DNA from: Nanobdellota archaeon
GTDB taxonomy: Archaea; Nanobdellota; Nanobdellia; Pacearchaeales; GW2011-AR1
Assembly (NCBI GenBank): GCA_013329055.1
Contig: DUKY01000011.1
Coordinates: 16,096-80,095, forward strand
DNA: 64,000 nucleotides
Reading direction: 5' to 3'
This document shows, piece after piece, positions 3,523 through 16,782 of this stretch. Position 1 is the first letter of the stretch. Every line of letters starts with the position of its first letter. The notes beneath the pieces were generated by a model. That model worked only from the letters and a program-made list of their open reading frames with translations, had not been told where the DNA came from and searched no databases. Made by a program: the position numbers and the translations under genes.

Positions 3523-4971
3523 TTATACTAACTTTTCAAGTTCTTCAAAACCTTCTAAAAGTTCTTTAACTTCTTTCTTGGCTTCTTTTATTATTTCCTT
3601 ACTATTTCGATGAATTACTTCTTCGTGCTTTTCTTTTCTATATTTGTTAATTGATAAATCAAAGTCGTTAGCCTTTATTTCATCAATTGAAACAAAAAAG
3701 GATTTTTTAGAAATATCTTTATTATCTTCCTTTTTTCTTTTTTCAAATCTTTCTAAAATATCTGGTATATCGTTTTCTTTTATCTCGTTTCTCTTATCGT
3801 CTAAACTATAACCGTCCGCTTCCATATCGTAAAACCAAACTTTCTCTGTTGGTTCCCCTTTTGTAAAATAAAGAACTGCTGTGGAAACCCCTGCGTAAGG
3901 TTTGAATATCCCTGAAGGCATAGATATAACAGCATCAAGACGGCACTTTTCTAATAAAAGTTTTTTTATGGATTTATGTGCATTAGAGTTACCGAATAAA
4001 ACACCTTCTGGAACAATTACAATGCATCTTCCTCCCACGGAAAGAGAATTATACATAAGTTCTAAGAAAAGTAATTCTGTTTTACTTGTGCTTATAGTTA
4101 GTTCATCTGATTTCTCACTTTCATTTATGGATCCTTTAAATGGTGGATTTGCTAAGATTAAATCATAAATTCCATTCTCGTTATATCTTTTTGATAAAGT
4201 ATCTTCTCCAACAATCTTTGGATTAGTTATTCCGTGCATCATTAAGTTCATGACTGCAATTCTAACCATAGTCCTATCGATATCATATCCATATAGAGAT
4301 TCTTCATCAAGAATTTTCTTCTTTTGAGGAGTTAGAGTGCTTACTCCATTCTTTTGATTTGTCCTTAAAATATATTCATAGGCATTAACCAAGAAACCCG
4401 CAGTTCCACAGGCGGGATCTAAGATTCTATCTCCAAATTCAGGTCTTGCTAAATCAACCATCATTCTAATTATATGTCTTGGAGTTCTAAACTGCCCGTT
4501 TTTTCCTGCTGATTGTAGCTCTGATAAAAGATACTCGTATATATCCCCTTGAGTATCCTGATTTTGTTCTTTAATATGTAAATCATTAATTATATTTACT
4601 GCTTCAATCAAAAGAGACGCTGTTGGAAGAGAAAAACTTGCATCTTTCATATATTTAGCATAAGAAGAATTTGCTTCTCCTAAATTTCTCATAAAAGGAA
4701 AGACAACATCTCTGACATGAGCTAAGATTTTATCGGAAGAATATTCACTCCAAACAGACCACCTGCAATTTTCGTGCCCTATAAAAACAGATTTATATTT
4801 GACCCCCTTAAGAACTGCATTTTGTTCATCTAAAATATCTTTATCTTCCATTTTCTTCATGAAAATTAAATAAGATATTTGTTCTATTGCTTGAAGGGGG
4901 TTACTAATTCCTCCACTCCAAAATTTATCCCATAACTTTCTTATCTTTGATTTTAGTTCCGTGTGTAACAT
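3523..4971 (-). CDS. hsdM: type I restriction-modification N6-adenine DNA methyltransferase subunit
   Basis: SAM-binding motif DPACGTAGFL and catalytic motif NPPF (LANPPFKGS). The N-terminal HsdM-like helical region begins LWDKFWSGGISNPLQAIEQISYLIF. Confidence 0.9.
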   Translation of the reverse strand: MLHTELKSKIRKLWDKFWSGGISNPLQAIEQISYLIFMKKMEDKDILDEQNAVLKGVKYKSVFIGHENCRWSVWSEYSSDKILAHVRDVVFPFMRNLGEANSSYAKYMKDASFSLPTASLLIEAVNIINDLHIKEQNQDTQGDIYEYLLSELQSAGKNGQFRTPRHIIRMMVDLARPEFGDRILDPACGTAGFLVNAYEYILRTNQKNGVSTLTPQKKKILDEESLYGYDIDRTMVRIAVMNLMMHGITNPKIVGEDTLSKRYNENGIYDLILANPPFKGSINESEKSDELTISTSKTELLFLELMYNSLSVGGRCIVIVPEGVLFGNSNAHKSIKKLLLEKCRLDAVISMPSGIFKPYAGVSTAVLYFTKGEPTEKVWFYDMEADGYSLDDKRNEIKENDIPDILERFEKRKKEDNKDISKKSFFVSIDEIKANDFDLSINKYRKEKHEEVIHRNSKEIIKEAKKEVKELLEGFEELEKLV

Positions 4972-4974
4972 GTT

Positions 4975-6387
4975 TTATTTAAAAACCTCCCAATGTCCTC
5001 TACCACCAGTTTGAGGACCTATTCTCTTAATTTTTCCTTCTTGCTTCAATATGTCTATATCTCTCTTTATAGTCTTTTCATTGGCTTTTAGTTGAGACGA
5101 TATCTCAGATATTGCAACTTTATTATTACTTTTTATCATTGCAAGAATATCTTCTCTTCGCTTATCGGGGACATTATCGGGGACATTATCGGGGACATTA
5201 TCCCACTTAGTCTTTAGAGGAAACTCTATTTTATAGAAGGTAATCTCATTCTCAACAATAGGCTCAATTTTATAATAAGACTTCCAGCCATTAAACATCT
5301 TATCAAAACCATAGCCTGCATTTTCAGCAAGTTTGAGTATTCTAAATATTTTTATTAGAATAGGATTTCTCGGAAGAGTAAGTTCTTGTTTTCTTAAAAC
5401 CTCGACAGTAGCTGGCAAACTTCCAGGATTCATAAATTCAAGTCTATCTGAGAATACCCTTACTCTGGGCTTCATTGTGCCAAAATAGTCTGAATGTGCT
5501 AGAAGATTTACTAATGCTTCCCTTATTGCCAAAACTTGAGGTTGATTTTCATCTCTAAAAGCTCCTTTTGTTTTAAATGGAATGTCTATTCTTGTCAGAA
5601 GTCTTTCAAAGATACTAAAGAAGTAGTTGTAAAGATTCTTTTGTAATGGCATTCTATAGGTATATCTTTCAGGAGCATCTGAATAAGATGTCCCCCTTAT
5701 TTCTAAATAATCAATCATAAAATCAGAAAATACCTTACCTATTGAATCTTCATTTCCAAACATTAAAAGTCCCGCAATAGTTACTTTGCCATCAATTGTA
5801 ACTCTTAATTTTTCAAATAATTCTGCTTCGGAAAGATCGCCGTAAGGATTAGCAGAATCAAGATTTTTTATGTAATTCCTAAATCTATCTAGTGTTTCTT
5901 TGTCTAAGTCTTTTAATTTAAATTTTGTTGTTTCTTTGTCTTTAGTTCCAAATGCCGAGTCTCTAAATAATGCATTAAGTTCTTCATAAGTCGCTCTTTG
6001 ATCTCCACTACCTGTTCTTATAAAAGTATTTTTGGGATTATCATAAAAAATAGGCTTGCTCTCTGCAACAGGTATATAAAAAGCAAGAACTGTTTTACTA
6101 TCGAAATTATACTTTTTACATTTAACTTCTAATTTCTTATTAAACTTCTGACCATTTCTTAAGACCCCTATAAAATCTTGTTCTACTTTTTCAGGATTTG
6201 AAACTCCAAGGATAGTGTATTCTTTTCCTTCTTTCTTTACTCCAAAGACAAGCCAGCCTCCAGCAGTATTTGAAAAAGCACTTACAGTCTCCCAGCTATT
6301 TTTTGGAACTTCAGATTTTGCTTCTTTAACCTCAAAGTCTTCCCATTCAATATCCTCTAATTTTTTTATTAATTCTTGTTTGTTCAT
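4975..6387 (-). CDS. AlbA_2/Schlafen-like DNA-binding protein with C-terminal winged-HTH
   Basis: N-terminal EWEDFEVKEAKSE...SAFSNTAGGWLVFGV is typical of the AlbA_2 domain. C-terminal DeoR-like HTH (ISEISSQLKANEKTIKRDIDILKQEGKI). Genes of this kind are frequent passengers in type I R-M loci. Confidence 0.65.
   Translation of the reverse strand: MNKQELIKKLEDIEWEDFEVKEAKSEVPKNSWETVSAFSNTAGGWLVFGVKKEGKEYTILGVSNPEKVEQDFIGVLRNGQKFNKKLEVKCKKYNFDSKTVLAFYIPVAESKPIFYDNPKNTFIRTGSGDQRATYEELNALFRDSAFGTKDKETTKFKLKDLDKETLDRFRNYIKNLDSANPYGDLSEAELFEKLRVTIDGKVTIAGLLMFGNEDSIGKVFSDFMIDYLEIRGTSYSDAPERYTYRMPLQKNLYNYFFSIFERLLTRIDIPFKTKGAFRDENQPQVLAIREALVNLLAHSDYFGTMKPRVRVFSDRLEFMNPGSLPATVEVLRKQELTLPRNPILIKIFRILKLAENAGYGFDKMFNGWKSYYKIEPIVENEITFYKIEFPLKTKWDNVPDNVPDNVPDKRREDILAMIKSNNKVAISEISSQLKANEKTIKRDIDILKQEGKIKRIGPQTGGRGHWEVFK
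5163..5202. repeat. 12-nt tandem repeat x3.3 inside a CDS, encoding (DNVP)3
   Basis: tatcggggacat is repeated back to back. It translates to DNVPDNVPDNVPD on the minus strand. Confidence 0.9.
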
Positions 6388-6390
6388 TTT

Positions 6391-6669
6391 TCACTTCTTA
6401 ATTCTTTCAGTTTTATATTTCTTATATTCTCGTAACCTTAATTTATTTATTTTCAGATTTTTTAACTCTTCCCATAATTTTTTATTTATCTTTTTGTAAT
6501 CAATAAAGATTCTCCCTCTTTCACCACCAAATTCACAATAACAATAAGGCATTCCTCCTTGAGAAGCTTCTTCTAATTGTTTACTATAAGTTGATAGCTC
6601 TCCACATGACGGACAGATGTAATATTTTTCTTTGAAATTCTTTGAAAGGTTTTTTGCTTTTTTATTCAT
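6391..6669 (-). CDS. small hypothetical protein, possible zinc-ribbon
   Basis: 92-aa ORF with CPSCG ... CYCEFGG. 4-nt overlap with the upstream ORF. Confidence 0.4.
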   Translation of the reverse strand: MNKKAKNLSKNFKEKYYICPSCGELSTYSKQLEEASQGGMPYCYCEFGGERGRIFIDYKKINKKLWEELKNLKINKLRLREYKKYKTERIKK

Positions 6670-7076
6670 TTTTTTGATCCAATCCTTTTATTTAAACAGA
6701 ATAATCCTTTTTCTCTAACTATTAATTCATTATCATTAACTTTTATTGTTTTATTTGATAAAATATCTTTATACTCTTCTCCCCTATTTTTTAAAAAATA
6801 TTTACATCCCTCTTTTAGAAAATGGGTTGAAATAAAATAAACATTATTCTTTGATTGATCACCAGAGCAAATATAGATTTCCATTCTAAAATCACGATTA
6901 TAATCTTTTAAAAAAATAGTTTCATTATCAATTAATATTCCGGATTCATTGATTAAAAAATTACTGATTCTTTCGGAATCACAAAGAGTATAAGATACCA
7001 CACTAACAGAGATTATGCTTACCCCAATAAAAAACCCAATAATTAGTAAAATTATTTTTTTCATATTATAATTCAC
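6666..7076 (-). CDS. membrane-anchored hypothetical protein
   Basis: 136-aa ORF with an N-terminal hydrophobic helix (KKIILLIIGFFIGVSIISVSVV). Overlaps the hsdS stop. Confidence 0.4.
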   Translation of the reverse strand: MNYNMKKIILLIIGFFIGVSIISVSVVSYTLCDSERISNFLINESGILIDNETIFLKDYNRDFRMEIYICSGDQSKNNVYFISTHFLKEGCKYFLKNRGEEYKDILSNKTIKVNDNELIVREKGLFCLNKRIGSKK

Positions 7077-8235
7077 CCCTAAATGCTTTTTGCATTAGCG
7101 AATCAAATAATTCTTCGGAGCTTTGTTTAGTTTTCTTTTGCTTTTCTTTCATCTTTTCAACTTTCTCGACGATGTTTGCGAATTTTTGTTGGAGGGGAAG
7201 TGGCGGGAGGGGGATTTTAAAATTATCAACAAAATATTTTGGCAATCTTCTAAGCCCCCCAGTTCCAGTTAATTGTTTTTCGCCTAATTTAATAAAAGTT
7301 TCACTGGAAATAACATAGTAAACAAGTTCTGGCAAAATATTTTTTGTTGGACGTAATACGTGATATTCGCTTGAGCCAAACCCAATTCTATTTTTTAAGT
7401 TCTTACATATTCCAGATTTACCATTTTCAAAGCAAGGAGTTACCTTAGCCAATAAAATATCTCCTTCCATAAAGTAAGTATATCCCTTATACACTTCCTT
7501 TATCCTTCGTATTTCTTTGGGTTTAAAATGAATACTGTGTTCTGAAATATCCGCCATTGGAACAAAAGAAACTTCTAAATTATTATCTTCTTTCCCAATT
7601 TCAGATTTTTTAGGATTGATTTCACAAATATCCCCTAGCTTAACTTTTTCAAAATCTTTCTTCAAAAACATCTCATTAAAAATAGCCTTAAGATATTCAT
7701 CAAGTAATTCACTGGCTTTCTTACTTTTTTCTTTCTGCTTTTCTGCTTTTTCTAAAATTGCGACGATTTGTTTTTGTGTTTCGAGGTCTGGTTTTCCTTC
7801 GGGGTTTTCAAGGGTCGGGGGGAGATAAGGGAGGAGGATTTTTTTCTCTTTAAGAAATTTATAATGTCTGCTATATCCTGCCGAAGAAATCTTTAATTTT
7901 TTTAGGGCGTAATAAAAATATTTTTGGGAAATATTTTCTTTTGGAACTAATATTTTAACTCCATCTGCACCAAGAGCAAATGGGAAATTAATAAATTTTA
8001 AAATTCTTGTATGGTCTCCAAAGATAATCACAGGTAATTTTTCATCATAAACTTTTGATTTGTCATTAGTATATCCTGCAATAAATTCTTCTCCTTGATC
8101 AATTATGGGATATTTGCCCTTTTTCAAAAAATCCTTTCCTTGAATTTTAAGATTATTGCTTGAAGCTTCTTTTTCAAGACAATCTAAGAAATTGATGTCT
8201 CTCCATTCAATTTTATTGGTTTGTTGGATTTTCAT
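7066..8235 (-). CDS. hsdS: type I restriction-modification specificity subunit
   Basis: Two target-recognition halves separated by conserved helical spacers (LPPLPLQQKFANIVEKVEKMKEKQKK; EKQKEKSKKASELLDEYLKAIFNEMF). Size and context match HsdS. Confidence 0.85.
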   Translation of the reverse strand: MKIQQTNKIEWRDINFLDCLEKEASSNNLKIQGKDFLKKGKYPIIDQGEEFIAGYTNDKSKVYDEKLPVIIFGDHTRILKFINFPFALGADGVKILVPKENISQKYFYYALKKLKISSAGYSRHYKFLKEKKILLPYLPPTLENPEGKPDLETQKQIVAILEKAEKQKEKSKKASELLDEYLKAIFNEMFLKKDFEKVKLGDICEINPKKSEIGKEDNNLEVSFVPMADISEHSIHFKPKEIRRIKEVYKGYTYFMEGDILLAKVTPCFENGKSGICKNLKNRIGFGSSEYHVLRPTKNILPELVYYVISSETFIKLGEKQLTGTGGLRRLPKYFVDNFKIPLPPLPLQQKFANIVEKVEKMKEKQKKTKQSSEELFDSLMQKAFRGEL

Positions 8236-8701
8236 TTTTTGATAGATGCTTCTTAAATTTTTTTAATTCACTTATAGTCCTTTTAGAAATATAAGGAGTA
8301 AAATTAATTTTCAGATGACCTTGACTAAATTTAGCCCTTAGGGTTACTCCATTATTATGCCCTCCAATCTCAAGATATTTCTTTTTTGTGATTTTGTAAT
8401 AATTTTTAAAATTATTATCTATGAAATAAGATACTAAAACGATTTCAGGGTCTATATCCTTCATGGTATCTTCATTTAGATCAAGCATCTTTGGGTGAGG
8501 GGACCACCATGCCATTTCCAAACCTAATAATTTTACTATAAATTTATTATATAAAAAATAAACTCCGATAAATACAATAAATATTATAATAATGATAAAT
8601 CCCTTTGGCAAAAGAGTTATCATTAAAGCAAATAATATACCAATAAGAAAGAAAAAGAATCCCATAATAGCCGATTTTTGAATACTGTTTAATTTTTTCA
8701 T
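8213..8701 (-). CDS. hypothetical two-TM membrane protein
   Basis: 162-aa ORF with two N-terminal hydrophobic helices. 23-nt overlap with the hsdS start. Confidence 0.4.
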   Translation of the reverse strand: MKKLNSIQKSAIMGFFFFLIGILFALMITLLPKGFIIIIIFIVFIGVYFLYNKFIVKLLGLEMAWWSPHPKMLDLNEDTMKDIDPEIVLVSYFIDNNFKNYYKITKKKYLEIGGHNNGVTLRAKFSQGHLKINFTPYISKRTISELKKFKKHLSKNENPTNQ

Positions 8702-8847
8702 TTTCTTTTTTTAGCATAAAAACTTACTTTTACTTTTTGAGTTTTTCGAACTTTAAAACAAACTTTTCTTCCATCTTTTGTTTTAAAACAAATATTTTTC
8801 TTTATTGGTTTTTTAGCCATAAAACTAACTCTTTTTCTTTGTGCCAT
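8698..8847 (-). CDS. possible 49-aa very basic peptide (below the ORF-track cut-off)
   Basis: Hand translation: MAQRKRVSFMAKKPIKKNICFKTKDGRKVCFKVRKTQKVKVSFYAKKRK. Its ATG abuts the TAA of the upstream ORF, and its TGA overlaps the ATG of the downstream ORF (ATGA). Confidence 0.3.
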   Translation of the reverse strand: MAQRKRVSFMAKKPIKKNICFKTKDGRKVCFKVRKTQKVKVSFYAKKRK

Positions 8848-9390
8848 TTATATCAACCTCTCAATAATTTTAATTGTGATATTCAAAATCATAACAGCAT
8901 CCAATTCACTAACTTCTTTTAAAATTTCATGAACAGAATTATTTCTTTGACTTCTTAGTCCATGAAGGAAATGATAATCTGATTCTTCAATAAGATTTGT
9001 TTTTTTTGCTTCTTCAATTAAGTTGTAAAAATTCTTTTTATTTACTTTTTCTTTTGTTAAAGCTTCAGCAAATAAGTTAGCTAGACTATTCTCAAATCTT
9101 TCTTTTAATATATTTTCTATTAAAGCAGATGCAACAACCACAGAACTTCTAAATAATCCGTAAGAATAGGCCCTATATGATTCAACAAACGCAGAATAAT
9201 ATTCTGGTTTTTTTCCTAATTTAGAAATAAAATCCTGTGTTAAAGGAACTCTCTGAGCTTTGCTATTAATCTGCGACTGAAATGCTTTATAATTTTCTAA
9301 TGCTTGTTTATCCGCAGGATTTGGTGCAGAAATTGCTGCTCCGACAAATCCTCCAAGAATCATTGCTAAAAGTTTATCATTTTGTGTCAT
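8848..9390 (-). CDS. hypothetical protein with C-terminal Rx4H motif (HEPN/DUF4145-like)
   Basis: 180-aa ORF. The C-terminal LHGLRSQRNNSVHE contains R-NNSV-H. The N-terminus is hydrophobic and Gly-rich. Confidence 0.35.
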   Translation of the reverse strand: MTQNDKLLAMILGGFVGAAISAPNPADKQALENYKAFQSQINSKAQRVPLTQDFISKLGKKPEYYSAFVESYRAYSYGLFRSSVVVASALIENILKERFENSLANLFAEALTKEKVNKKNFYNLIEEAKKTNLIEESDYHFLHGLRSQRNNSVHEILKEVSELDAVMILNITIKIIERLI

Positions 9391-9394
9391 TTTT

Positions 9395-11566
9395 TTAAAA
9401 TATAATCTCCTTTAATTTTTTAATCTCTTCTACAGTAGGCTGATTGACTGCATAGGGGTTTAATATAATATCCCCGACTAAGATAAATTTAACCTTGCCA
9501 TCTAAATTTACTAATTGTTTTTTGAAATAAATTAATCCACTAACAATTTGTTTATCTTTGGCAATTGCATCATCTTTTCTTATTAGTTCGGGCTTTGTTG
9601 TTTCTCCAGTTTCATTATTCCTATAAAATTGGTAAGTCAATGTTCCAAAAAAACTATTTGCTATCATGTATTCATCTATAACCGAAGAACTTGCATCAAC
9701 GACAATAAAATACAAATCATTTCTAATACCCTTTTTCATTTCTTCAAAAGATTCCAGAGAATAAAATTGACTTGATTTTTCTTTGAGAATTTTATCAACC
9801 TTATTATTTATCGTAACTGCACCGTTATCTAAATGTAAACTTCTATCTCCTTTAGAGTTTTTAATCTCAAAAAAAACATTCTTATTATTTAATTTAATAT
9901 ATAAATCTGCATTATTGTTTTTATTCGGAATCTTTGGTTCAAGAATTGAATTTAAGTTCTCTTCCAAAAAAATAAATTTGTTTGTAAAGATAATCTCGCT
10001 AAAATCATCCCAAAACTTATCTTCATTTTCAAGACCCCTAATTAATGACGTGCGATTATCTTTATTCCGTTCATTAGAAATATTTTTTGAGTAACTAAGA
10101 AAATTCTCTATTTCATTCAAATATGCCTTTTTTAGTTCTTTATCTCTTTGTTGGCTACCTAACCAAAATAAAGGACTATATCTTTTTTTGTTATATAACT
10201 CTTTTAATTTATGTTTAATTATCTTGTCTAATTCGGAAAATTCTTTTAAAGATTCATCAATTTCATTAAATTCAAAATCAATAATTCTAAATCTTAATTG
10301 TTCCAATAATCCATTAATATAATTAATTAGTTCATCAAAATTATTTTTGTTAACCAATTCATCAAATGTTTTTTTATTTTCATTAATAAAATCTTTATTC
10401 TCGGATATTTCTTCTATCTTTTTAGCTAAGGGGAAAAATAAATTAAACGCCTTCTTTTTATCCTGGTCTTTGTAGATTATTCCAATAATTTTACTAACAA
10501 GTTCATAATAGAGTTTAGGATCCTTGTCAAAAATCTTTTTTTCCATCAATTCTCTTGAAGCAAATTCAACATTTTGAGAAGCCATTTTTTCAAAAATCCT
10601 TGGAAAGATATACTTATAATCTAACTTCTCAGTTTTTACTTTTTCAAAATTATCTAAAAAATAATCTATAAACTTCTCATTCTTTTTTACCAACTCTTGA
10701 ATAGCCCAATCAAAATGCTGAACTTTGAATTCTAAATCTTTATTTATCCAATAGATAAATAGCTTAGATATTTTTTCAATTTCGTCAGGGTAATCTATCA
10801 ACGGATACATCATATCGTTGATAATGGTTTCTTCTGAATTCTTATATAATTCTATTAATTCCAAAATGTGTTCTTTATCTAATTTAATTCCAATTGTTTT
10901 CCAAAATAGTAATCTATTCACTGAAATAATTTTTCTTTCGGCAAGTGATTTTATTTTCTCATAAAAATAACTTTTCTCGTTTTTATAGAATGACAAATAA
11001 AGATTCATAAGTTCGGTTAATATCCTCTCATCATGAGATAACATTGTCTTATTAAGACACTCTTTAACTTCAGTAGGTAAAATTTCTTTTTCATATTTTA
11101 CCAAAATTGCTTTAAGAATAGTATTTTTCGTTGGATATTCCAAATTTCTTTTAATTAAATCCTTTAATAATCCTTCATTGTAAAATGAATATCCCCCAAG
11201 TATTAACCCAGAGATTATTTTAAGATCTATATTATTAGATTTATTTTGGATTATATAATATAATTTTATTGCTACTTCTTGCTTTTCTTTTCCAACTTTT
11301 ATTAACATCTCAAAAAAAGGTCCACTTGCCATATCTCCTTTTACTTTTAAAAAGACACTATCTAAATATTCCAGATATTTTTCACTATCAGAAGCTAAAT
11401 CAAATAAGATTTCTATAGATAATTGAAAATAATTCCAAATAGACTCTTTATTTATTTCATCTAATAAGACATATTTGTTTTCTTCAGTTATATCTCCCTT
11501 TATCTTAGAATATTCTTCTTTTTGTTTATCAAATTCAAATCTAAATTGTTTAAATTTTTCAATCAT
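9395..11566 (-). CDS. large helical protein with C-terminal PD-(D/E)xK-like nuclease motif
   Basis: 723-aa ORF. About 500 aa are Lys/Glu/Leu-rich and predicted helical. The C-terminus has FSEII...ADLYIKLNNKNVFFEIKNSKG (E ... D ... ExK spacing). Confidence 0.35.
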   Translation of the reverse strand: MIEKFKQFRFEFDKQKEEYSKIKGDITEENKYVLLDEINKESIWNYFQLSIEILFDLASDSEKYLEYLDSVFLKVKGDMASGPFFEMLIKVGKEKQEVAIKLYYIIQNKSNNIDLKIISGLILGGYSFYNEGLLKDLIKRNLEYPTKNTILKAILVKYEKEILPTEVKECLNKTMLSHDERILTELMNLYLSFYKNEKSYFYEKIKSLAERKIISVNRLLFWKTIGIKLDKEHILELIELYKNSEETIINDMMYPLIDYPDEIEKISKLFIYWINKDLEFKVQHFDWAIQELVKKNEKFIDYFLDNFEKVKTEKLDYKYIFPRIFEKMASQNVEFASRELMEKKIFDKDPKLYYELVSKIIGIIYKDQDKKKAFNLFFPLAKKIEEISENKDFINENKKTFDELVNKNNFDELINYINGLLEQLRFRIIDFEFNEIDESLKEFSELDKIIKHKLKELYNKKRYSPLFWLGSQQRDKELKKAYLNEIENFLSYSKNISNERNKDNRTSLIRGLENEDKFWDDFSEIIFTNKFIFLEENLNSILEPKIPNKNNNADLYIKLNNKNVFFEIKNSKGDRSLHLDNGAVTINNKVDKILKEKSSQFYSLESFEEMKKGIRNDLYFIVVDASSSVIDEYMIANSFFGTLTYQFYRNNETGETTKPELIRKDDAIAKDKQIVSGLIYFKKQLVNLDGKVKFILVGDIILNPYAVNQPTVEEIKKLKEIIF

Positions 11567-12227
11567 CTTTTTTTACCTCATAATTATCTGATTTGTGTAT
11601 ATCAAATTTATCTGAATATATTCTATTTTTTAATTTTATTTTGAATTTTCTTATCTTTCCCTCTTCTATACAGAAAATTTCTACCGGGAATAAAGCAGGA
11701 TGTCCCGTCATTGCATCATGTTTTCCTAAAAAATCAAAACATTCAAAAAAATTTTCAAAAATTTCTTTTTCATAATCTGTCACCAAAAATAGTTTCTCTT
11801 GACATTGTCCAATAAATTCAGAATTTGGGGAGCCAATCATTGCAAAATTAACCTCTTCATTATGTTGTTCCTTAAGATTTACAAATTTTTTATAAGTTAA
11901 ATTGGTAATATCTATCACGAGAATTCCAGACCCCATATTCAAATATTTAATATGTTGCTCCGTCTCTATAGATGGTGCATAATTCTCATTACTCATTGCA
12001 TTTTCAATCCTTGCTTTAAAATCTTCAAGATTAATACAGCTAATGGATTGATTATACACATGATTGATTATTAAATCACTCCCCGATCCAGCAAATAAAA
12101 ATTTCCCAGCAATTAAGGGAAATATCTTTGTTTTTGAATAAGTAGATACATCATAAGCATGTTGAGTATCTCCTGCCAAGAACAATCTTTCTCCATTTTT
12201 TGTTTTAAACAATATTATTGAAGTCAT
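11559..12227 (-). CDS. proteasome-beta/HslV-like Ntn hydrolase (Thr1 after Met)
   Basis: MTSIILFKTKNGERLFLAGDTQ...KTKIFPL...FAGSGSD aligns by eye with the genuine PsmB in this window (TTILGIVCKNGIVMAGDNR...EKVYQI...FSGCGSATEA). Thr1, the Asp of AGD, the Lys and the GSG block are all present. Confidence 0.55.
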   Translation of the reverse strand: MTSIILFKTKNGERLFLAGDTQHAYDVSTYSKTKIFPLIAGKFLFAGSGSDLIINHVYNQSISCINLEDFKARIENAMSNENYAPSIETEQHIKYLNMGSGILVIDITNLTYKKFVNLKEQHNEEVNFAMIGSPNSEFIGQCQEKLFLVTDYEKEIFENFFECFDFLGKHDAMTGHPALFPVEIFCIEEGKIRKFKIKLKNRIYSDKFDIHKSDNYEVKKDD

Positions 12228-12358
12228 CCCCTTCCACCCCCAATCAAAAACTTCTTATCATAAGAAAGTTCCTCTTTATCTAACAGCTTTTCAACTATCT
12301 CTTTGTAAGTCTTAACTTTCTTTTTCAATGTAATCATAGCCCAATCATCTCCAAACAT
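12224..12358 (-). CDS. possible 44-aa ORF (below the ORF-track cut-off)
   Basis: Hand translation: MFGDDWAMITLKKKVKTYKEIVEKLLDKEELSYDKKFLIGGGRG. Its TGA overlaps the ATG of the Ntn-hydrolase ORF. Confidence 0.2.
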   Translation of the reverse strand: MFGDDWAMITLKKKVKTYKEIVEKLLDKEELSYDKKFLIGGGRG

Positions 12359-12527
12359 ATAACTTTTCTCCATTAAATCCGAAGACCAAAACATTTTTAT
12401 ATTCCATATTCCTGTATTTTATTGTAAGCGGACCGGTTCCGTAAAAGGTTTGATTATTCAAACTGACCAACGCTTTATGCGTGTGATTGGTTGGGAAGAC
12501 CGCTAATCGCTTACATTTTATTTTCAT
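12345..12527 (-). CDS. doubtful 60-aa ORF overlapping a GC-rich structured patch
   Basis: Listed in the ORF track, with no motif. It overlaps both neighbouring ORFs and may be spurious or a frameshifted fragment. Confidence 0.2.
   Translation of the reverse strand: MKIKCKRLAVFPTNHTHKALVSLNNQTFYGTGPLTIKYRNMEYKNVLVFGFNGEKLYVWR
12424..12514. other. GC-enriched 91-nt element closed by a 7-bp stem
   Basis: GTAAGCG (12424-12430) pairs with CGCTTAC (12508-12514). Internal hairpins are TTTGA-TTAT-TCAAA and CCAACGC-TTTAT-GCG..TTGG. By hand count about 46% G+C in a much more AT-rich context. Confidence 0.3.
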
Positions 12528-13023
12528 TTAATTCCTCCCAATAATTTTTAATTGAACTAAATGGAACATCAACAATATTTAACTTCTTTCCTCTAATCTG
12601 CCTATTTGTCTTTAATGCTCTTCTTCGGTATATTCTCGCATAATTATCCGCTAAAGAACCAATATTTCTTCCAAGTCTTTTCCTGAACTCAGAGATATTA
12701 ATAATTTCAAAAGAATAATTTTTTAACAAATAATCCAAAATATTTTTAACAACTTGAAAATCTTCATCATTACAAATTATCAAGGTTTTAAGATCTTTTT
12801 CAACATTTTTAACCAAAAGATAAATACAAATGGCATATAATTTTGCAGAATCCTCATAAATATTTTTTTTAAATAATCTTCTCTTAATTAACTCTAGTAA
12901 ATTTCCCTTCAAAGCACATCCATAATTAACTTTTGTTTTTGAGCCTACAAGAGCAATACCTATAGTTTTCTTCCAATAGATTCTTCCACTCATATCAACA
13001 TGAAAATCATCTTTTTCTATCAT
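12511..13023 (-). CDS. hypothetical protein
   Basis: 170-aa ORF with no recognisable motif. Its start overlaps the stop of the RHH-like ORF (ATGA). Confidence 0.45.
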   Translation of the reverse strand: MIEKDDFHVDMSGRIYWKKTIGIALVGSKTKVNYGCALKGNLLELIKRRLFKKNIYEDSAKLYAICIYLLVKNVEKDLKTLIICNDEDFQVVKNILDYLLKNYSFEIINISEFRKRLGRNIGSLADNYARIYRRRALKTNRQIRGKKLNIVDVPFSSIKNYWEELNENKM

Positions 13024-13193
13024 TCCTCCTCCCCCAATCCAGTTTCTTTTCTTATCATCTCTCTAAGTTTTGTATTTACAGTTTTGCCTTCCTGATCACA
13101 AAGTTTTTTGAAAAAAAGAAATTCACTTTTATACAATCTTGTAGAAACAATTTTCCTCTCTTCACCGCTTAAATCATGATTTTTTAAAACCAT
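13020..13193 (-). CDS. 57-aa ribbon-helix-helix (CopG-like) protein (below the ORF-track cut-off)
   Basis: Hand translation: MVLKNHDLSGEERKIVSTRLYKSEFLFFKKLCDQEGKTVNTKLREMIRKETGLGEEE. The pattern is a beta-strand (KIVSTRL) followed by two helices, as in RHH regulators or antitoxins. Confidence 0.45.
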   Translation of the reverse strand: MVLKNHDLSGEERKIVSTRLYKSEFLFFKKLCDQEGKTVNTKLREMIRKETGLGEEE

Positions 13194-13253
13194 AGAAAAA
13201 ATAAAAATAAGAACTATTTAAATATTTAGGTAGTTACCTGTATACACCTTTTT

Positions 13254-13279
13254 GTTCATAAATTGTATAATTTATGAAC
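13254..13279. promoter_or_regulatory. perfect 11-bp inverted repeat upstream of the RHH ORF (candidate operator)
   Basis: GTTCATAAATT-GTAT-AATTTATGAAC, about 60 nt upstream of the RHH start. An AT-rich TATA-like TTTAAATATTT lies at 13217-13227. Confidence 0.35.
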
Positions 13280-13394
13280 TATTTCCACTTTTCCATTTTT
13301 CCACAAGTATTATATACCATAACCATCTATATATTTTATCTGGGTAAGTCCTAGGGAGGTTTGTGTACCGGAATGGTGCACCTTGTCTTAATCT

Positions 13395-14033
13395 CTAGGG
13401 TCCGGATAACTTTTCAAACACTTCTTTCTTTATTACTATTTTATCCTTTATTGTGTTCATAAAATTGGAATCTTTGAATTCATAATTTCTAAAAATTGCC
13501 CATGAAATAAAATCTAAAACCTGCAAACAACCTTCTTTCTGAGAATCCTCGTGTCTTATGTCTATTTTACAATTAGAATTATTCTGAACTAAGCTAGATC
13601 TAATATAATTATCAAAATCCTCCCTCAAGGAACGATTGGTCTTGGACTTATCAACAATTAAACAAACATGATTATTATCCAAAGAGCATTCGTTTAAAAT
13701 AAGATTTGAAATGTAATTGTACAACTTATCTTTTTTGTTTTTTAGATATTCATAAACTTTGGATTTTTCAAGAATTATAACAAATACTTCTGAGTTTGTT
13801 TCCACAAATCTTTTTAAGATCTCTGCTCTTATTTTGTCTGTACTGTTATTTCCCTTTAGTTCAGGATACTTTTTCATTTTCTTTTTGATTATTTTTTGTC
13901 TGACTTTTTTCATTATTCTTCTTAAAGAATAAACTTCTTCCTCATCACAAGATAATAGAGCTATAACAAAATATTTGCTTGAAGTTGATTTAAATCCAAG
14001 TTCTCCACTCTCATCAAGAAAGATATATTTCAT
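13395..14033 (-). CDS. DUF3800-family protein
   Basis: N-terminal YIFLDESGELGF is characteristic of DUF3800. The ORF starts 1 nt after the hsdR stop. Confidence 0.65.
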   Translation of the reverse strand: MKYIFLDESGELGFKSTSSKYFVIALLSCDEEEVYSLRRIMKKVRQKIIKKKMKKYPELKGNNSTDKIRAEILKRFVETNSEVFVIILEKSKVYEYLKNKKDKLYNYISNLILNECSLDNNHVCLIVDKSKTNRSLREDFDNYIRSSLVQNNSNCKIDIRHEDSQKEGCLQVLDFISWAIFRNYEFKDSNFMNTIKDKIVIKKEVFEKLSGP

Positions 14034-14034
14034 C

Positions 14035-16782
14035 TTATTTCCACTTCAATTCATTGCATTTTTGAACAATTGTCTCCAATTGTTCCTTACTAAAAGCATC
14101 TAAAGGTCTTCCTTCTGCCAAAGGATGTTCTGCAAAATTCTTTAATTCAATATGTTTCGCCCGAACAAAAACCTGCTCTAACATCCTTAAAAATTTCAAT
14201 TGTTGAGAATTATAATGTTCATTTTTATCCATAACAAATTTATCAAATTCCCATTTAATCATTTCTTGGGGATCAGGTAATCCCTTTATTTCTAATAATC
14301 CTCTCAAGAATAAAATAAAATCTTGACTCTGTTGAATGTTATCAATAGTCCATCTAGGATTTAAGCCTCTTAAATTTTTTTCAATTTCCAATAGTTCTTT
14401 AGATGTGACTCCATCTCCATTTTTAATTTTTTCTAATAGCTTATTACTGTTAACAAAATAAGAATAGTTTTCACCTTCTTTAACTTTCATTATTTCTTTT
14501 TTAACATCAATAACTATATCTGGAGCATTGATTTTTAACATATTTTTTCTTTCTTGTTCGTAGAATATCATTAAAGGAGAAATTTCTCTAACTAAGAAAT
14601 CAACATCTTCAAAAGTTATTTCTTCCCAAAATTGCTCTTTTTGGATTCTTACTAAATCATTCCTTTTCTGTTTTACAGCATCTAAGTTCTTATCCCAAAT
14701 AGAATCTACCCTTTCTACAACAAACTCTTCAATCTTAGCAATTTTATTTTTATTTCCGGTTTTTATGCAATCAAAAAGTTTAACGCACTGAGAAATGAAA
14801 CCATAAACTTTTGCATTTTCAGAAGGAGTATAAATCAAAAGAGGAGCTATTTCATTTCTTAATTCCTCAACATGTTCTCGCAAATCAAATTTAGAAGAAA
14901 CAACTTTTGTTATAATATTTTTCTTCTCAATAACCAATGGAGATTCAACATCAATTTCTTTAATTGTATCACGAATTTGTTTTTCAACAATTTTTCTCTC
15001 CTTCTCATCTAAATTTTTCTCCAAAGCATCAACTTGTTCTAAAAATATTCTTGTTTTAGCGTCAGTTCCAGAAGATTTTTGTTTAAAAATGTTTAATTTA
15101 TGTTGCATCACATTAGACCAATCTCCAAATTTAAAATCCAATATCAAAAAATCTTCTTTTATGTGTTGTCCATCTTTATTTGTTGGCAACCATTCTTTAT
15201 TTTCACAGGCAGATAAACTCCTTGTTCCTCTTCCTAACATCTGCCAAAATCTAATTGAAGACATTACGGGTTTAACAAAAACTAAATTCATTACTTCAGG
15301 AACATCAACCCCAGTATCTAAAACTCCAACAGATAAAGCAATTCTTGGGCTATCTCTTTTCTCAAATCTTTTAACCTCATCCATGTAACGAGATTTATCA
15401 GAAGTAATAACTTTTACATCCTTTGCTAAAGAGGGGTAAAGTTTTTGAAATAATTTTTCTAAAGATTCCGCATGTTTTACACTTGCACAGAAGAAAATAC
15501 TTTTACATGGCCTATTATCATCTGATTTATAACACCTATCAACAAATTCTCTAATGATTAATTCGTTAGTTTTTTCATCTGTAAAAAATCTTTCAAATTT
15601 AGAACCTGGTGTTTGAAATTTCTCTGGGTCTTCCTCTTGTTGCTTTAATGCTTGTTGTAATTCTTTATTCAATTTTTTTCCTTCAATTCCTAATGAAAGA
15701 ACACTTGTTTCAATAATTTCTGCTACATAAGGAGCTAAAATTTTGTCTCTTACTGCAGAATCATAATCATATCTAAAGGTAGGTTTTCCATTATCACAAT
15801 TAAAGAGATCAAAAGTATTTCTTGTTTCTTCTGAAGAAGGAGTGGCAGTTAATCCAACTTTTAAAGCATCAAAATATTTGAAGATATCATTATTTTTATC
15901 ATAGTAAGAACGGTGTGCTTCATCAAAAATAATTAAGTCAAATGCTCCAGGACCAAATTTTTCATAAAATTTCCCTCTTGGTTTTTGAGGAGACATTAAA
16001 GTTTGAATTGTAGAAACATAAAATCTTGCACTACTTGAATATCCTTCTTCATTCAACTCACAAACTGGAGATTCAGGAAAAAATTTCTTAAATCCTTTTT
16101 CTTTTGCCTGATTTCCTAGAGAAATTCTATCAACAACAAATAGGACTTTTTGTACATATTCTGCTTTTATTAAACAATCTATTAAAGCCATTGCTACTCT
16201 TGTTTTTCCAGTTCCAGTAGCCATATTAATAAGAGCCTCTCTATGTCCATCAGAGAAATGTTCTAATACTGTTTTAACTGCCTCAACACACATCTTTCTG
16301 TTTAAAATAGTAGAACTCACCTTAACATTTGCTGGGTCTTTTCTTTGTTTCATTAAGCTAATTATTCTATGCAAATCTTGTTGAGAAAAAGGCAAGAGAA
16401 TTTTTCTTCTTCTATCTAAGTCATCAACATAATACCAATTTGTTCCGTTAGTTAAGAATATAGGGATTTTAATTTTAATTTGTTTTTCAATATCATCTCT
16501 ATAAGTTCGTGCTTGAATTTCCCCTTTTTCAATGTCAATAGAAGTTTTTTTTGCTTCTACAATTGCAAGGGGACTTCTATCTTCATCTAATAATAGATAA
16601 TCAATAAAATGATCCACTCCTTTTTCTATTCCAGCTTCACGACCAATATATTCTTTAGTTTTAAATTTGGATTTAACTGGATTAATTTCTTCTTTGACAT
16701 AATGTCCTTTAACTTTCCATCCTGTCCTTTCTAAAATTGGATCTATCAAGTTTTTTCTTGTTTGTTCCTCAGTAAGCCCCAT
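14035..16782 (-). CDS. hsdR: type I restriction enzyme R subunit (nuclease-helicase)
   Basis: N-terminal PD-(D/E)xK (DYLLLDED...AIVEAKK), Walker A MATGTGKT, DEAH box IFDEAHRS, helicase motif VI QMLGRGTR, and a long C-terminal helical domain as in EcoEI-type HsdR. Confidence 0.85.
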   Translation of the reverse strand: MGLTEEQTRKNLIDPILERTGWKVKGHYVKEEINPVKSKFKTKEYIGREAGIEKGVDHFIDYLLLDEDRSPLAIVEAKKTSIDIEKGEIQARTYRDDIEKQIKIKIPIFLTNGTNWYYVDDLDRRRKILLPFSQQDLHRIISLMKQRKDPANVKVSSTILNRKMCVEAVKTVLEHFSDGHREALINMATGTGKTRVAMALIDCLIKAEYVQKVLFVVDRISLGNQAKEKGFKKFFPESPVCELNEEGYSSSARFYVSTIQTLMSPQKPRGKFYEKFGPGAFDLIIFDEAHRSYYDKNNDIFKYFDALKVGLTATPSSEETRNTFDLFNCDNGKPTFRYDYDSAVRDKILAPYVAEIIETSVLSLGIEGKKLNKELQQALKQQEEDPEKFQTPGSKFERFFTDEKTNELIIREFVDRCYKSDDNRPCKSIFFCASVKHAESLEKLFQKLYPSLAKDVKVITSDKSRYMDEVKRFEKRDSPRIALSVGVLDTGVDVPEVMNLVFVKPVMSSIRFWQMLGRGTRSLSACENKEWLPTNKDGQHIKEDFLILDFKFGDWSNVMQHKLNIFKQKSSGTDAKTRIFLEQVDALEKNLDEKERKIVEKQIRDTIKEIDVESPLVIEKKNIITKVVSSKFDLREHVEELRNEIAPLLIYTPSENAKVYGFISQCVKLFDCIKTGNKNKIAKIEEFVVERVDSIWDKNLDAVKQKRNDLVRIQKEQFWEEITFEDVDFLVREISPLMIFYEQERKNMLKINAPDIVIDVKKEIMKVKEGENYSYFVNSNKLLEKIKNGDGVTSKELLEIEKNLRGLNPRWTIDNIQQSQDFILFLRGLLEIKGLPDPQEMIKWEFDKFVMDKNEHYNSQQLKFLRMLEQVFVRAKHIELKNFAEHPLAEGRPLDAFSKEQLETIVQKCNELKWK

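Follow-up and report, generated by a model that had tools for sequence, protein, structure and literature searches.

A two-gene cassette, in which a protease gene of 222 codons is translationally coupled to the gene for a 723-aa partner with a nuclease-like C-terminal end, probably represents a new accessory component of antiviral defence in archaea, because the same pair adjoins restriction systems of three types. The module is previously undescribed. It was compared across about 30 related loci, among which recurrence is limited to the 57-, 222- and 723-aa genes, and from this comparison of sequences the conserved unit appears to be the cassette itself. Where sequence upstream of the partner gene is available (31 loci), the gene immediately before it belongs to the protease family in 30, in agreement with the co-occurrence raised in the original prediction, and in most loci the two genes overlap by 4 or 8 nt. 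Both families are tiny and alike in size (46 and about 45 representatives), and were found in DPANN archaea only. Protease subfamilies do not track the partner phylogeny but are shuffled among loci, which argues against tight residue-level co-evolution of the pair.

The 222-aa protein had been proposed to be an N-terminal nucleophile (Ntn) hydrolase with a catalytic Thr1, and by homology it is a divergent relative of the proteasome beta subunit and HslV. The open reading frame begins with the expected Met1-Thr2 and no propeptide. When the family profile was searched against the PDB, the best match was HslV (4hnz, E = 1.3e-6) and all of the top 60 matches were proteasome or HslV; the Pfam Proteasome family (PF00227) was matched by 5 of 43 family members. 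Alignment with the window's own proteasome beta subunit using hhalign (the window being the whole 64,000-nucleotide stretch of DNA analysed) gave 95.3% probability over 181 columns, with the Thr1, Asp17, Lys33, GSG and DxxSG positions in register. Thr2, Asp20, Lys34 and Gly132 are invariant in the 43 sequences, at a mean identity of 23%, and the conserved positions comprise Asp20, Lys34, Gly49, Gly132-Ser133, Asp171 and Thr174-Gly175.

The structure of the 723-aa partner was predicted with AF2 (pLDDT 90.5 over the full length, 87.6 for the C-terminal domain). Foldseek searches of the PDB with the N-terminal solenoid returned, with E-values of about 1e-3, importins, beta-catenin and an Integrator HEAT subunit, and this part of the model is presumed to be a protein-binding or sensor scaffold. 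The C-terminal domain follows a helix-strand-strand-strand-helix-strand order, and Glu524, Asp554, Glu567, Lys597, Gln600 and Asp624 are invariant across loci. A conserved loop of low model confidence (residues 570-589) sits beside the putative active site. The predicted D...ExK motif is present as D554...E567-I-K569, but its canonical lysine, Lys569, varies as K/T/A/V, with T, A or V replacing the lysine in about half of the members. Foldseek matches to this domain were mostly PD-(D/E)xK nucleases (Bax1, R2 RLE, SfsA, McrC, BspD6I, AF1548 and Hjc), with a best E-value of 5e-3, the rest worse, and TM scores of 0.2-0.3; with the 723-aa protein as query, profile searches gave no match in PDB or Pfam. 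The original description of a nuclease-like end is thus upheld by the secondary-structure order and the invariant Glu/Asp/Glu residues, but not by the variable lysine, the weak fold matches or the profiles, and the model points only weakly to a PD-(D/E)xK nuclease-like domain.

Association with restriction-modification (R-M) genes, anticipated from the position in this genome, extends to 17 of about 22 informative non-redundant loci, where the pair is co-oriented within or abutting an R-M operon. The systems are type I in two gene orders (the window, L002, L003, L005, L011, L012, L014, L015, L018, L031, L032 and L034), type IIG of the Eco57I/MmeI-like kind (L008, L020, L028 and L033) and type III (L006). 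The tie to restriction may be one of genomic neighbourhood rather than mechanism, since five loci, among them L004, L009, L017 and L029, have no adjacent R-M genes; integrases and Fic genes occupy the remaining loci. Additional nucleases beside the pair vary: PDDEXK_1 (L006, L008, L022 and L029), DUF2779 (L028 and L034) and DUF4145/HEPN in the window, with a motif-level HEPN domain near the pair in L007 and a Pfam-supported DUF4145 gene in the L032 island. PADLOC named no system for the 170-, 222- and 723-aa proteins, in line with the earlier failure to match the genes to a named defence system, and the pair had no match in phage, plasmid or viral-contig collections.

Table 1 Features of the coupled array in the window.
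Feature	Coordinates	Strand	Basis or remark
hsdR, type I restriction subunit, EcoEI-type C-terminus	14035..16782	-	Pfam ResIII E = 8.5e-37, HSDR_N, EcoEI_R_C
DUF3800 gene between hsdR and module promoter	13395..14033	-	Pfam E = 3.9e-16
Perfect 11+4+11 palindrome, 26 bp, GTTCATAAATT-ATAC-AATTTATGAAC	13254..13279	.	60 nt upstream of the ATG at 13193
Promoter-proximal block	13214..13253	-	Degenerate second palindrome, then TATA-like TTTAAATA
57-aa small protein, putative ribbon-helix-helix regulator	13020..13193	-	Homologues in related loci
170-aa ORF, lineage-specific insertion	12511..13023	-	Without homologue in related loci
Two small ORFs, 60 and 56 aa, lineage-specific	12224..12527	-	Locally G+C-richer stretch
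222-aa divergent proteasome-beta/HslV-like Ntn threonine protease	11559..12227	-	Family profile against PDB, Pfam, hhalign
723-aa partner, N-terminal ~510 residues, all-helical ARM/HEAT-type solenoid	10037..11566	-	AF2, Foldseek
723-aa partner, C-terminal ~210 residues, restriction-endonuclease-like alpha/beta domain	9395..10036	-	AF2, invariant residues, Foldseek
180-aa DUF4145-family HEPN protein, N-terminal hydrophobic helix	8848..9390	-	Pfam PF13643 E = 1.5e-7
49-aa very basic peptide, internal repeats, lineage-specific	8698..8847	-	Without homologue in related loci
162-aa protein, two N-terminal transmembrane helices, lineage-specific	8213..8701	-	23-nt overlap with hsdS
hsdS, type I specificity subunit, within coupled array	7066..8235	-	Pfam Methylase_S E = 6.3e-18
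hsdM, type I methyltransferase, end of coupled array	3523..4971	-	Pfam N6_Mtase E = 5e-70, HsdM_N

The host of the window is a DPANN archaeon. Every overlap or abutment previously listed between 13193 and 8698 was found in the sequence: three ATGA overlaps (13020-13023, 12224-12227 and 8698-8701), an 8-nt overlap at 11559-11566 (ATGATTGA), and an ATG starting right where a TAA ends (8848/8847). The split type I setting was likewise confirmed, with hsdR, hsdS and hsdM each identified by Pfam (Table 1). The operon had been regarded as a unit distinct from these genes, but coupling runs on past 8698 as far as hsdM at 3523, taking in hsdS, two small ORFs and a Schlafen/AlbA_2 gene on the way (the spacings being -23, -11, -4, 3 and 3 nt), and the unit is instead the head of this array. 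The cassette is predicted to be transcribed together with hsdS and hsdM. Across the 13.3-kb array (3523-16782) the sole real intergenic gap is the 201 nt of 13194-13394, within which 13280-13361 is a degraded second copy of the 3' end of hsdR; the DUF3800 gene was absent from the related loci compared. Because DPANN genomes are compact and ORFs also overlap elsewhere within the window, overlap alone is weak evidence for one unit; the 222/723 overlap kept across loci is stronger evidence than overlap in this genome.

In the clade embedded in type I R-M systems the module is headed by the 57-aa gene; L002, L003, L011, L014, L015 and L018 each have a homologue in this place (55-96% identity), and in L015 a motif-level HEPN domain is fused to it. 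The ribbon-helix-helix label given to this gene reflects a sequence pattern for which profile searches gave no confirmation. The perfect palindrome reported upstream is present, is shared at this site by L011 and L018, has an imperfect copy in L002, and was not found in L003, L014 or L015. In relatives it lies directly 3' of the hsdR stop codon, and it may serve as an operator or mark where hsdR ends. A second palindrome, AAAAAGGTGTATACACCTTTTT, is commoner among relatives, and its window copy is broken by an 8-nt insertion. The promoter-proximal block is kept in L002, L003 and L018 and occurs in variant form in L014 and L015; its TATA-like element, read against the archaeal TATA consensus, lies about 27 nt upstream of the ATG of the 57-aa gene, a position that suggests a leaderless transcript.

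No homologue of the 170-, 60/56-, 180-, 49- or 162-aa ORFs was detected in the approximately 30 related loci, and these ORFs would be lineage-specific cargo in the same operon, outside the core. For the 170-aa ORF no family, PDB, plasmid or viral match was found, and in P0002, the closest relative of the 222-aa gene, the 57-aa gene abuts the protease gene directly. The ORFs at 12224-12394 and 12345-12527 are doubtful as genes because they overlap each other by 50 nt and lack homologues; the stretch is a candidate for a structured RNA (fold z = -2.72) or for a frameshifted gene encoding about 100 aa, with no Rfam match for the region and no Pfam match for the merged protein. The 180-aa protein, proposed earlier from an Rx4H motif to be HEPN-like, does belong to the DUF4145 family of HEPN proteins (31.8 bits against a PF13643 cut-off of 23.1), with RNNSVH, an RNxxxH motif, at residues 149-154. 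It also matched PADLOC PD-T7-3 (E = 4.7e-5) and the NCBIfam HsdR N-terminus (E = 1.2e-3). R-M operons frequently carry members of DUF4145, a HEPN family (PMC3710099), and the protein appears to be an accessory in this lineage.

Several explanations of the locus were weighed. The original prediction treated 8698-13193 as one novel defence system of nine ORFs with three effector chemistries (Ntn hydrolase, nuclease and HEPN). Every ORF is tightly coupled in this genome, and HEPN domains occur near the pair elsewhere (L015 and L007 at motif level, L032 by Pfam). However, the pair is in all of the about 30 related loci whereas the 170-, 60/56-, 180-, 49- and 162-aa ORFs lack homologues there, and in the nearest relatives the 57-aa gene is followed directly by the protease gene, and the partner gene directly by hsdS. 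A single multi-effector system is largely refuted by these comparative data and is now highly improbable. A selfish, toxin-antitoxin-like addiction cassette, in which a toxic nuclease restrained by the protease or a small regulator hitch-hikes in mobile R-M islands, would suit the shuffled protease subfamilies, the adjoining integrases and Fic genes and the shifts between contexts. It is nevertheless improbable given the strong, orientation-specific preference for R-M operons of three types, the frequent translational coupling with R-M genes and the absence from mobile-element and viral collections.

Housekeeping control of the restriction enzyme is rather unlikely but deserves more weight. 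Here the solenoid or DNA-binding partner would direct the protease to degrade restriction subunits or clear enzyme complexes stuck on DNA, and so protect the host chromosome or recycle the R-M system, as an archaeal counterpart of the ClpXP-dependent restriction alleviation established for EcoKI in E. coli. Enzymes of types I, III and IIG fail to turn over once they have cut, and the R-M partners found are exactly the translocating or single-turnover classes; the cassette is presumably co-transcribed and often translationally coupled with methyltransferase or specificity genes, and BREX, a related methylation-based system, has its own dedicated protease-like subunit, BrxL. On the other hand, the associated enzymes come from unrelated families (different HsdR families, fused type IIG and type III Res), so that a common proteolytic substrate is not obvious, and some loci have the pair but no R-M genes beside it. 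The invariant acidic triad of the C-terminal domain suggests catalysis over mere DNA binding, and accessory nucleases cluster with the pair. Post-restriction clean-up is unlikely. The nuclease-like domain, with Cas4-like and DUF2779 helpers, would degrade cut DNA from its ends while the protease removes DNA-bound proteins, standing in for RecBCD/AddAB-type degradation, which to our knowledge these archaea lack. End-processing nuclease families (PDDEXK_1/Cas4-like and DUF2779) do recur beside the pair, and a tie to any R-M type fits a need for the DNA product only, without a specific protein partner, but the cassette has no helicase or ATPase to power processive degradation and its large conserved solenoid suggests specific protein recognition.

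The reading tentatively preferred, at slightly less than even chances, is that the pair is an accessory immune module repeatedly taken up by R-M systems of several types. Against it, the cassette encodes no ATPase or other obvious sensor. The two proteins would be produced in fixed proportion and form a complex. The solenoid would sense a restriction-linked protein or nucleoprotein cue, for example broken DNA, a viral protein or an R-M complex that has stalled or been inhibited, and the protease would then cut its own partner or a bound target. The conserved flexible loop may gate the partner as a pro-nuclease, whose nuclease-like domain would be freed or placed on DNA; in some lineages a separate Cas4-like, DUF2779 or HEPN nuclease may take the nuclease step. 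Pairs of a pro-nuclease and a protease have been repeatedly acquired by unrelated immune systems (PMC12799240). The closest analogue of the cassette is a group of nuclease-protease pairs reported in 2025, whose folds are unrelated to those of the window pair.

Sixteen ORFs run along the minus strand of the window from hsdR to hsdM, in DNA of about 28% G+C. Genes for HsdR, HsdS and HsdM were all recognized with Pfam, bearing out the split type I restriction-modification (R-M) system of the original prediction, and every gene junction it had listed was present: ATGA overlaps at 13020-13023, 12224-12227 and 8698-8701, an 8-nt overlap at 11559-11566, and a TAA followed without a gap by ATG at 8848/8847. 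The tight coupling extends past position 8698 through hsdS, two small ORFs and a Schlafen/AlbA_2-HTH gene up to hsdM. The sole real gap in this 13.3-kb array is a stretch of 201 nt upstream of the 57-aa ORF, and the perfect palindrome noted earlier lies within it. Between the DUF3800 gene and this palindrome lies a degraded second copy of the final ~80-110 nt of hsdR, with AAGTGGAAATAG (KWK stop) at its end, which shows that DUF3800 inserted between hsdR and the module promoter and that the hsdR tail was duplicated. The Schlafen/AlbA_2 protein encoded within the R-M operon also carries a HATPase_c_4 domain, and AlbA_2-type proteins were seen in the R-M operons of three related loci (L014, L031 and L032). 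Downstream of hsdM, a SNF2-family helicase gene follows on the same strand. Hypothetical proteins QT05_C0049G0011 and G0010 of DPANN archaeon GW2011_AR13 have the same sequences as the 222-aa and 723-aa proteins.

Coordinates of the features of the window, with strand and assignment where available
Feature	Position	Strand	Assignment
SNF2-family helicase gene	1631-3418	minus	
hsdM	3523-4971	minus	Pfam N6_Mtase, HsdM_N
Schlafen/AlbA_2 gene	4975-6387	minus	
hsdS	7066-8235	minus	Pfam Methylase_S
49-aa ORF	8698-8847	minus	
723-aa partner gene	9395-11566	minus	
222-aa protease gene	11559-12227	minus	
60- and 56-aa ORFs	12224-12527	minus	
57-aa gene	13020-13193	minus	
Palindrome copy split by insertion	13228-13253		
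Perfect palindrome	13254-13279		
hsdR-tail duplicate	13280-13361		
DUF3800 gene	between hsdR and the 201-nt gap		Pfam DUF3800
hsdR	14035-16782	minus	Pfam ResIII, HSDR_N, EcoEI_R_C
Canonical proteasome beta subunit gene	45414-46040		PF00227, E = 6.3e-41
FttA/aCPSF1-type gene	46070-47956		KH-beta-CASP termination factor

Thirty-four related loci were collected for comparison. The 723-aa protein has about 45 homologues among 5.8 billion clustered proteins, and those with a source name come mostly from Pacearchaeota and Woesearchaeota. In 30 of the 31 loci with upstream sequence present, the gene immediately before that of the partner belongs to the protease family by its HMM, and in most the two overlap by 4 or 8 nt. 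The pairing is obligate, the protease gene being translationally coupled to a partner composed of a solenoid and an endonuclease-like domain. The sole exception is L007, a 1.5-kb contig whose upstream ORF (1-456) is not a protease and carries RNNIVH, an Rx4H motif. The 57-aa protein recurs at 55-96% identity in the clade that is embedded in type I R-M systems. Homologues of the 170-, 60-, 56-, 180-, 49- and 162-aa ORFs and of DUF3800 were found in no related locus. The gene order in the nearest relatives is hsdR, 57-aa gene, (0-1 ORF), protease, partner, hsdS, (variable), hsdM, and the contig that carries the closest protease homologue has the 57-aa gene in direct overlap with that of the protease. 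This simpler order and the missing homologues indicate that the nine-ORF "operon" is a mosaic of a conserved three-gene core and lineage-specific insertions; the original reading of the whole run as one nine-gene system was rejected, since six of its ORFs are without homologues in the related loci. The case shows that "operons" inferred from a single genome can be mosaics; here the conserved core was told apart from lineage-specific cargo only by comparing related loci.

Protease subfamilies appear shuffled with respect to the partner when the window is set beside L002, L009, L011, L017 and L018. In loci where the 723-aa homologue is 74-81% identical to that of the window the protease is just 20-22% identical, and where the partner is 47-50% identical the protease is 33-36% identical, a mismatch that points to gene replacement within the cassette. 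A fusion of protease and partner was also sought. Two long protease homologues, P0090 and P0097 (932 and 954 aa), have an N-terminal protease-family domain that retains Thr2, Asp and Lys; the remainder is a long beta-rich region with a cupredoxin-like Cys...His...Met end, unrelated to the 723-aa family.

The original assignment of the 222-aa protein to the Thr1 Ntn hydrolases is well supported by its invariant catalytic residues, by profile matches in the PDB and by alignment to a proteasome beta subunit. When all ten ORFs were searched singly against Pfam, NCBIfam, PHROGs and PADLOC, this sequence matched nothing, nor did it match anything in the PDB, and the family is small, with 46 representatives among 1.84 billion. 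Thr2, Asp20, Lys34 and Gly132 are invariant in a 43-member alignment (mean identity 23%), and Met1 and Gly49 are nearly so; Ser133, Asp171, Thr174 and Gly175 all occur in the window protein, and alignment A3 shows them to be nearly invariant. Thr2 aligns with the mature Thr1 of HslV and proteasome beta subunits, so that the N-terminal threonine nucleophile of MEROPS family T1 is found after Met, and the equivalents of Asp17, Lys33, Gly47, Gly-Ser-Gly (Ser129) and Asp166-x-x-Ser169-Gly170 are kept. When the PDB was searched with the family profile (hmmsearch), HslV 4hnz was matched at E = 1.3e-6, and the top 60 of the 142 PDB sequences at E <= 1 were all proteasome or HslV. Five of the 43 members individually match Pfam Proteasome, whereas most members of the family fall below its threshold. 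The canonical proteasome beta subunit encoded in the window, which has a 12-residue propeptide, served as an internal positive control and was picked out by the family profile at E = 1e-10. Its alignment to the protease family with hhalign (probability 95.3%, E = 2.3e-8, 181 columns) pairs Thr2 with the mature Thr, Asp20 with GD, Lys34 with the EK-V lysine, GSGS with GCGS, IGSP with VGSG, and HDAMTG with RDMASG. Corresponding comparisons with HslV and the Thermoplasma acidophilum beta subunit gave low probabilities of 31% and <1% with approximate query sequences, and were set aside for the PDB profile search and the beta subunit of the window. The beta subunit gene adjoins that of the FttA/aCPSF1-type termination factor. 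The pattern of conservation argues for the 222-aa protein being an active enzyme, and it is described here as a predicted, catalytically conserved protease of the proteasome type.

The structure of the 723-aa partner was predicted with AlphaFold2 from 36 homologues (pLDDT 90.5). Residues 1 to ~510 form an all-helical solenoid in the model, with Foldseek matches to importins, beta-catenin and Integrator HEAT subunits at E ~1e-3. Because solenoid proteins swamped the full-length fold search, the C-terminal domain was predicted again and searched alone (pLDDT 87.6). Its elements are ordered helix, three strands, helix, strand, assigned by DSSP to H515-532, E540-542, E555-559, E562-570, H589-601 and E618-624, which in these predicted models is the alpha-beta-beta-beta-alpha-beta core of the PD-(D/E)xK fold. 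Glu524 in helix 1, Asp554 at the start of strand 2, Glu567 in strand 3, Lys597, Gln600 and Asp624 are invariant in every locus. The motif lysine, Lys569, is present in the clade of the window and is T, A or V in other loci; the invariant Lys597 in the next helix might substitute for it. Foldseek matches of the isolated domain were weak (best E = 5.1e-3, TM 0.2-0.3), most of the top 50 being PD-(D/E)xK nucleases, including Bax1, R2 RLE, SfsA, McrC, BspD6I, AF1548, Hjc, LmuA and the arenavirus endonuclease; a fold search of a viral library added DUF2726 and "restriction enzyme" entries. A sequence profile of the domain found no match in the PDB, the 723-aa protein itself matched nothing in Pfam, NCBIfam, PHROGs, PADLOC or, as a single sequence, the PDB, and significance is reached for no family. 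Of the nuclease-like character proposed originally from a D...ExK motif, the fold order and the invariant Asp554 and Glu567 stand; the lysine proved variable, the fold matches weak and the PDB and Pfam profile searches empty. Based upon the element order, the invariant residues and the predominance of PD-(D/E)xK folds among the weak matches, the domain is called restriction-endonuclease-like. It is a putative nuclease, probably metal-binding, and the invariant acidic triad argues for a catalytic role. Directly after strand 3 there is a loop conserved in sequence (residues 570-589, DRSLHLDNGAV) and predicted at low confidence, the pattern expected for a functional flexible loop.

Sequence conservation across loci extends to the region that precedes the 57-aa gene. 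In relatives the perfect palindrome stands directly after the hsdR stop codon, and a second, more widely conserved palindrome, AAAAAGGTGTATACACCTTTTT, lies ~40 nt upstream of the 57-aa ATG. A TTTAAATA box is located ~27 nt upstream of the same ATG, a position that suggests a leaderless transcript of the archaeal kind. The palindrome GGTGTATACACC adjoins the TATA box in relatives; in the copy of the window, 8 inserted nucleotides (AGGTAACT) split it, a change that may affect how the module is regulated in this lineage. The RHH label attached to the 57-aa protein fits its size, its strand-helix-helix pattern and the conserved palindromes upstream; an RHH fold (CopG, Arc, MetJ) was not confirmed by profiles, which gave no Pfam match, nothing relevant in the PDB, and weak matches to VirD1 (E = 0.036) and RepB-RCR_reg (E = 0.082) in one member. 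The most economical reading is that the protein is a small putative autoregulator or controller heading a unit that continues from the pair into hsdS and hsdM, whereas hsdR would have its own transcript, as type I systems usually do.

Among the lineage-specific ORFs, the Rx4H (HEPN-like) call for the 180-aa protein was confirmed by a match to DUF4145 (PF13643, 31.8 bits against a cut-off of 23.1, E = 1.5e-7) and by RNNSVH (RNxxxH) at residues 149-154; it also has an N-terminal hydrophobic helix. The DUF4145 family has been assigned to HEPN, with members fused to HsdR and within R-M operons (Anantharaman et al. 2013, PMC3710099). The 180-aa protein belongs to this family, with its motif and its position in an R-M operon, and the likeness concerns one non-core gene. 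In L015 and L016 the 57-aa regulator is fused to a domain of ~310 aa (L015 8215-9324) that carries RISLYH and is weakly similar to the HEPN protein of the window; in L015 the HEPN resemblance is at the level of the motif. Together with the RNNIVH ORF of L007, these fusions indicate that HEPN-like domains recur around the module. The 170-aa protein, previously described as having no recognizable motif, likewise had no relatives in Pfam, NCBIfam, PHROGs, PADLOC (apart from a chance-level Cas12c fragment), the PDB, or viral or plasmid collections. Two transmembrane helices are present in the 162-aa protein. The product of the 49-aa ORF is exceptionally rich in basic residues, contains internal repeats (VSFMAKK ... 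VSFYAKK; CFKTK ... CFKVRK) and may be a small nucleic-acid-binding peptide or antitoxin. The 60- and 56-aa ORFs share 50 nt within a stretch of locally raised G+C content, and a +1 shift near 12345 would join them into a protein of ~100 aa. A non-coding RNA was considered for this stretch and set aside: no Rfam family, tRNA or Pfam match was found, and the minus-strand RNA of 12395-12530 folds with a modest z of -2.72.

The pair is repeatedly placed in R-M operons of three types, being co-oriented inside or abutting such an operon in 17 of ~22 informative non-redundant loci. One group of type I systems shows the order hsdR-...-pair-hsdS-hsdM (the window, L002, L003, L011, L012, L014, L015, L018 and L031); other orders occur in L005, in L032 (hsdM-hsdS-pair-hsdR, with a different HsdR family) and in L034, where HsdM and HsdS are fused. 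With type IIG enzymes resembling Eco57I/MmeI (L008, L020, L028 and L033) the protease start overlaps the enzyme stop, and in L006 the system is a type III Mod-Res. The other informative loci have integrases and Fic genes. Additional nucleases beside the pair are Cas4-like PDDEXK_1 (L006, L008, L022 and L029), DUF2779 (L028 and L034), Shedu SduA_C (L006) and, in the window, the DUF4145 HEPN protein. Relatives of the pair were found on no viral contig, phage record or plasmid record, and the same held for the 170-aa protein. As in the original prediction, the gene combination was matched to no named defence system: no PADLOC-DB v2 model matched the 222- or 723-aa protein at E <= 1, and no Pfam family or paper describing the pair was found, including in literature searches on proteasome/HslV-like proteases in defence.

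It is proposed that the two proteins form a complex acting as an accessory immune module. The preferred account, held at somewhat below even confidence, takes its logic from the gated nuclease-protease pairs of Tuck et al. (Science 2025, PMC12799240): the solenoid would sense a cue linked to restriction, the protease would cleave the partner or a bound protein, and nuclease activity would then be unleashed. Alternatively, and with a small probability, the protease might control or recycle the restriction enzyme. Post-restriction clean-up of DNA and protein is given a slightly smaller chance, and a selfish addiction cassette is judged improbable. The diversity of the associated R-M families argues against a single proteolytic substrate. 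The solo loci, which have the pair and no adjacent R-M system, argue against obligate dependence on R-M. The data do not firmly discriminate the gated protease-nuclease account from these rivals. In its fullest form that account has a substantial, though less than even, chance: the first proteasome-family (Ntn threonine) protease in prokaryotic immunity would act in an ATP-independent protease/pro-nuclease machine, physically coupled to DPANN R-M complexes of several types, that fires when restriction is blocked or its products appear, by proteolytic unlocking of the endonuclease-like domain of its ARM/HEAT partner.

Enzymes of the proteasome family are known solely from housekeeping or stress proteolysis, for which they depend on ring partners or AAA+ unfoldases, and few defence systems are recognized in DPANN archaea. 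A free-standing proteasome paralogue tied to a solenoid-nuclease protein and to R-M operons would put the fold to a new use and add a class of protease to antiviral defence. For DPANN archaea the pair offers a concrete, testable candidate of ~3 kb with clear candidate catalytic residues (Thr2, Asp554 and Glu567).

Compared with HslV and the 20S proteasome beta subunits, the 222-aa family shares the threonine nucleophile directly after Met without a propeptide (as in HslV), the catalytic-residue equivalents and significant profile similarity. It differs in being ~16% identical to the beta subunit of its own genome, in having an obligate ARM/HEAT-nuclease-like partner, in sitting in defence islands rather than a housekeeping context, and in its surroundings, as no AAA+ unfoldase (HslU, PAN), other ATPase or alpha-subunit gene was found beside the pair in ~30 loci. 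On sequence grounds the protease thus qualifies for MEROPS family T1, with its usual partners missing. PrrC/RloC-type guards of type I R-M operons are similar in being accessory genes between hsd genes, co-expressed with the R-M system, and a plausible second line of defence when restriction is subverted; unlike them, the pair has no ABC-ATPase or anticodon-nuclease domain, comprises two genes, and also accompanies type IIG and type III systems. Protease and nuclease pairs recur in bacterial immunity, as in HamM/protease-HamA, Avs1b and the caspase-nuclease "canu", in which an MBL-fold pro-nuclease is accompanied by a protease, trypsin-like or a caspase, that is fused to a core immune protein; the paper on these (PMC12799240) makes no mention of R-M systems in DPANN archaea. 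The likeness lies in a protease gene and a nuclease(-like) gene that travel together and are repeatedly taken up by otherwise unrelated systems, and in a conserved flexible loop that, as in gated pro-nucleases, borders the putative active site of the nuclease(-like) domain. Here, in contrast, the protease is of the proteasome/HslV (threonine) type and is encoded by a free-standing gene, and the other domain is PD-(D/E)xK-like rather than a metallo-beta-lactamase, so that the resemblance is one of logic alone, proteolytic activation being a proposal. That immune systems diversify through the uptake of such pairs is a recently recognized principle; the pair would carry it over to archaea and R-M systems and, by way of convergent evolution, to folds that are entirely different. 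Precedent exists both for an accessory module embedded in R-M operons and for a recurrently acquired protease-nuclease pair; what is new here is the folds, the hosts and the connection with restriction.
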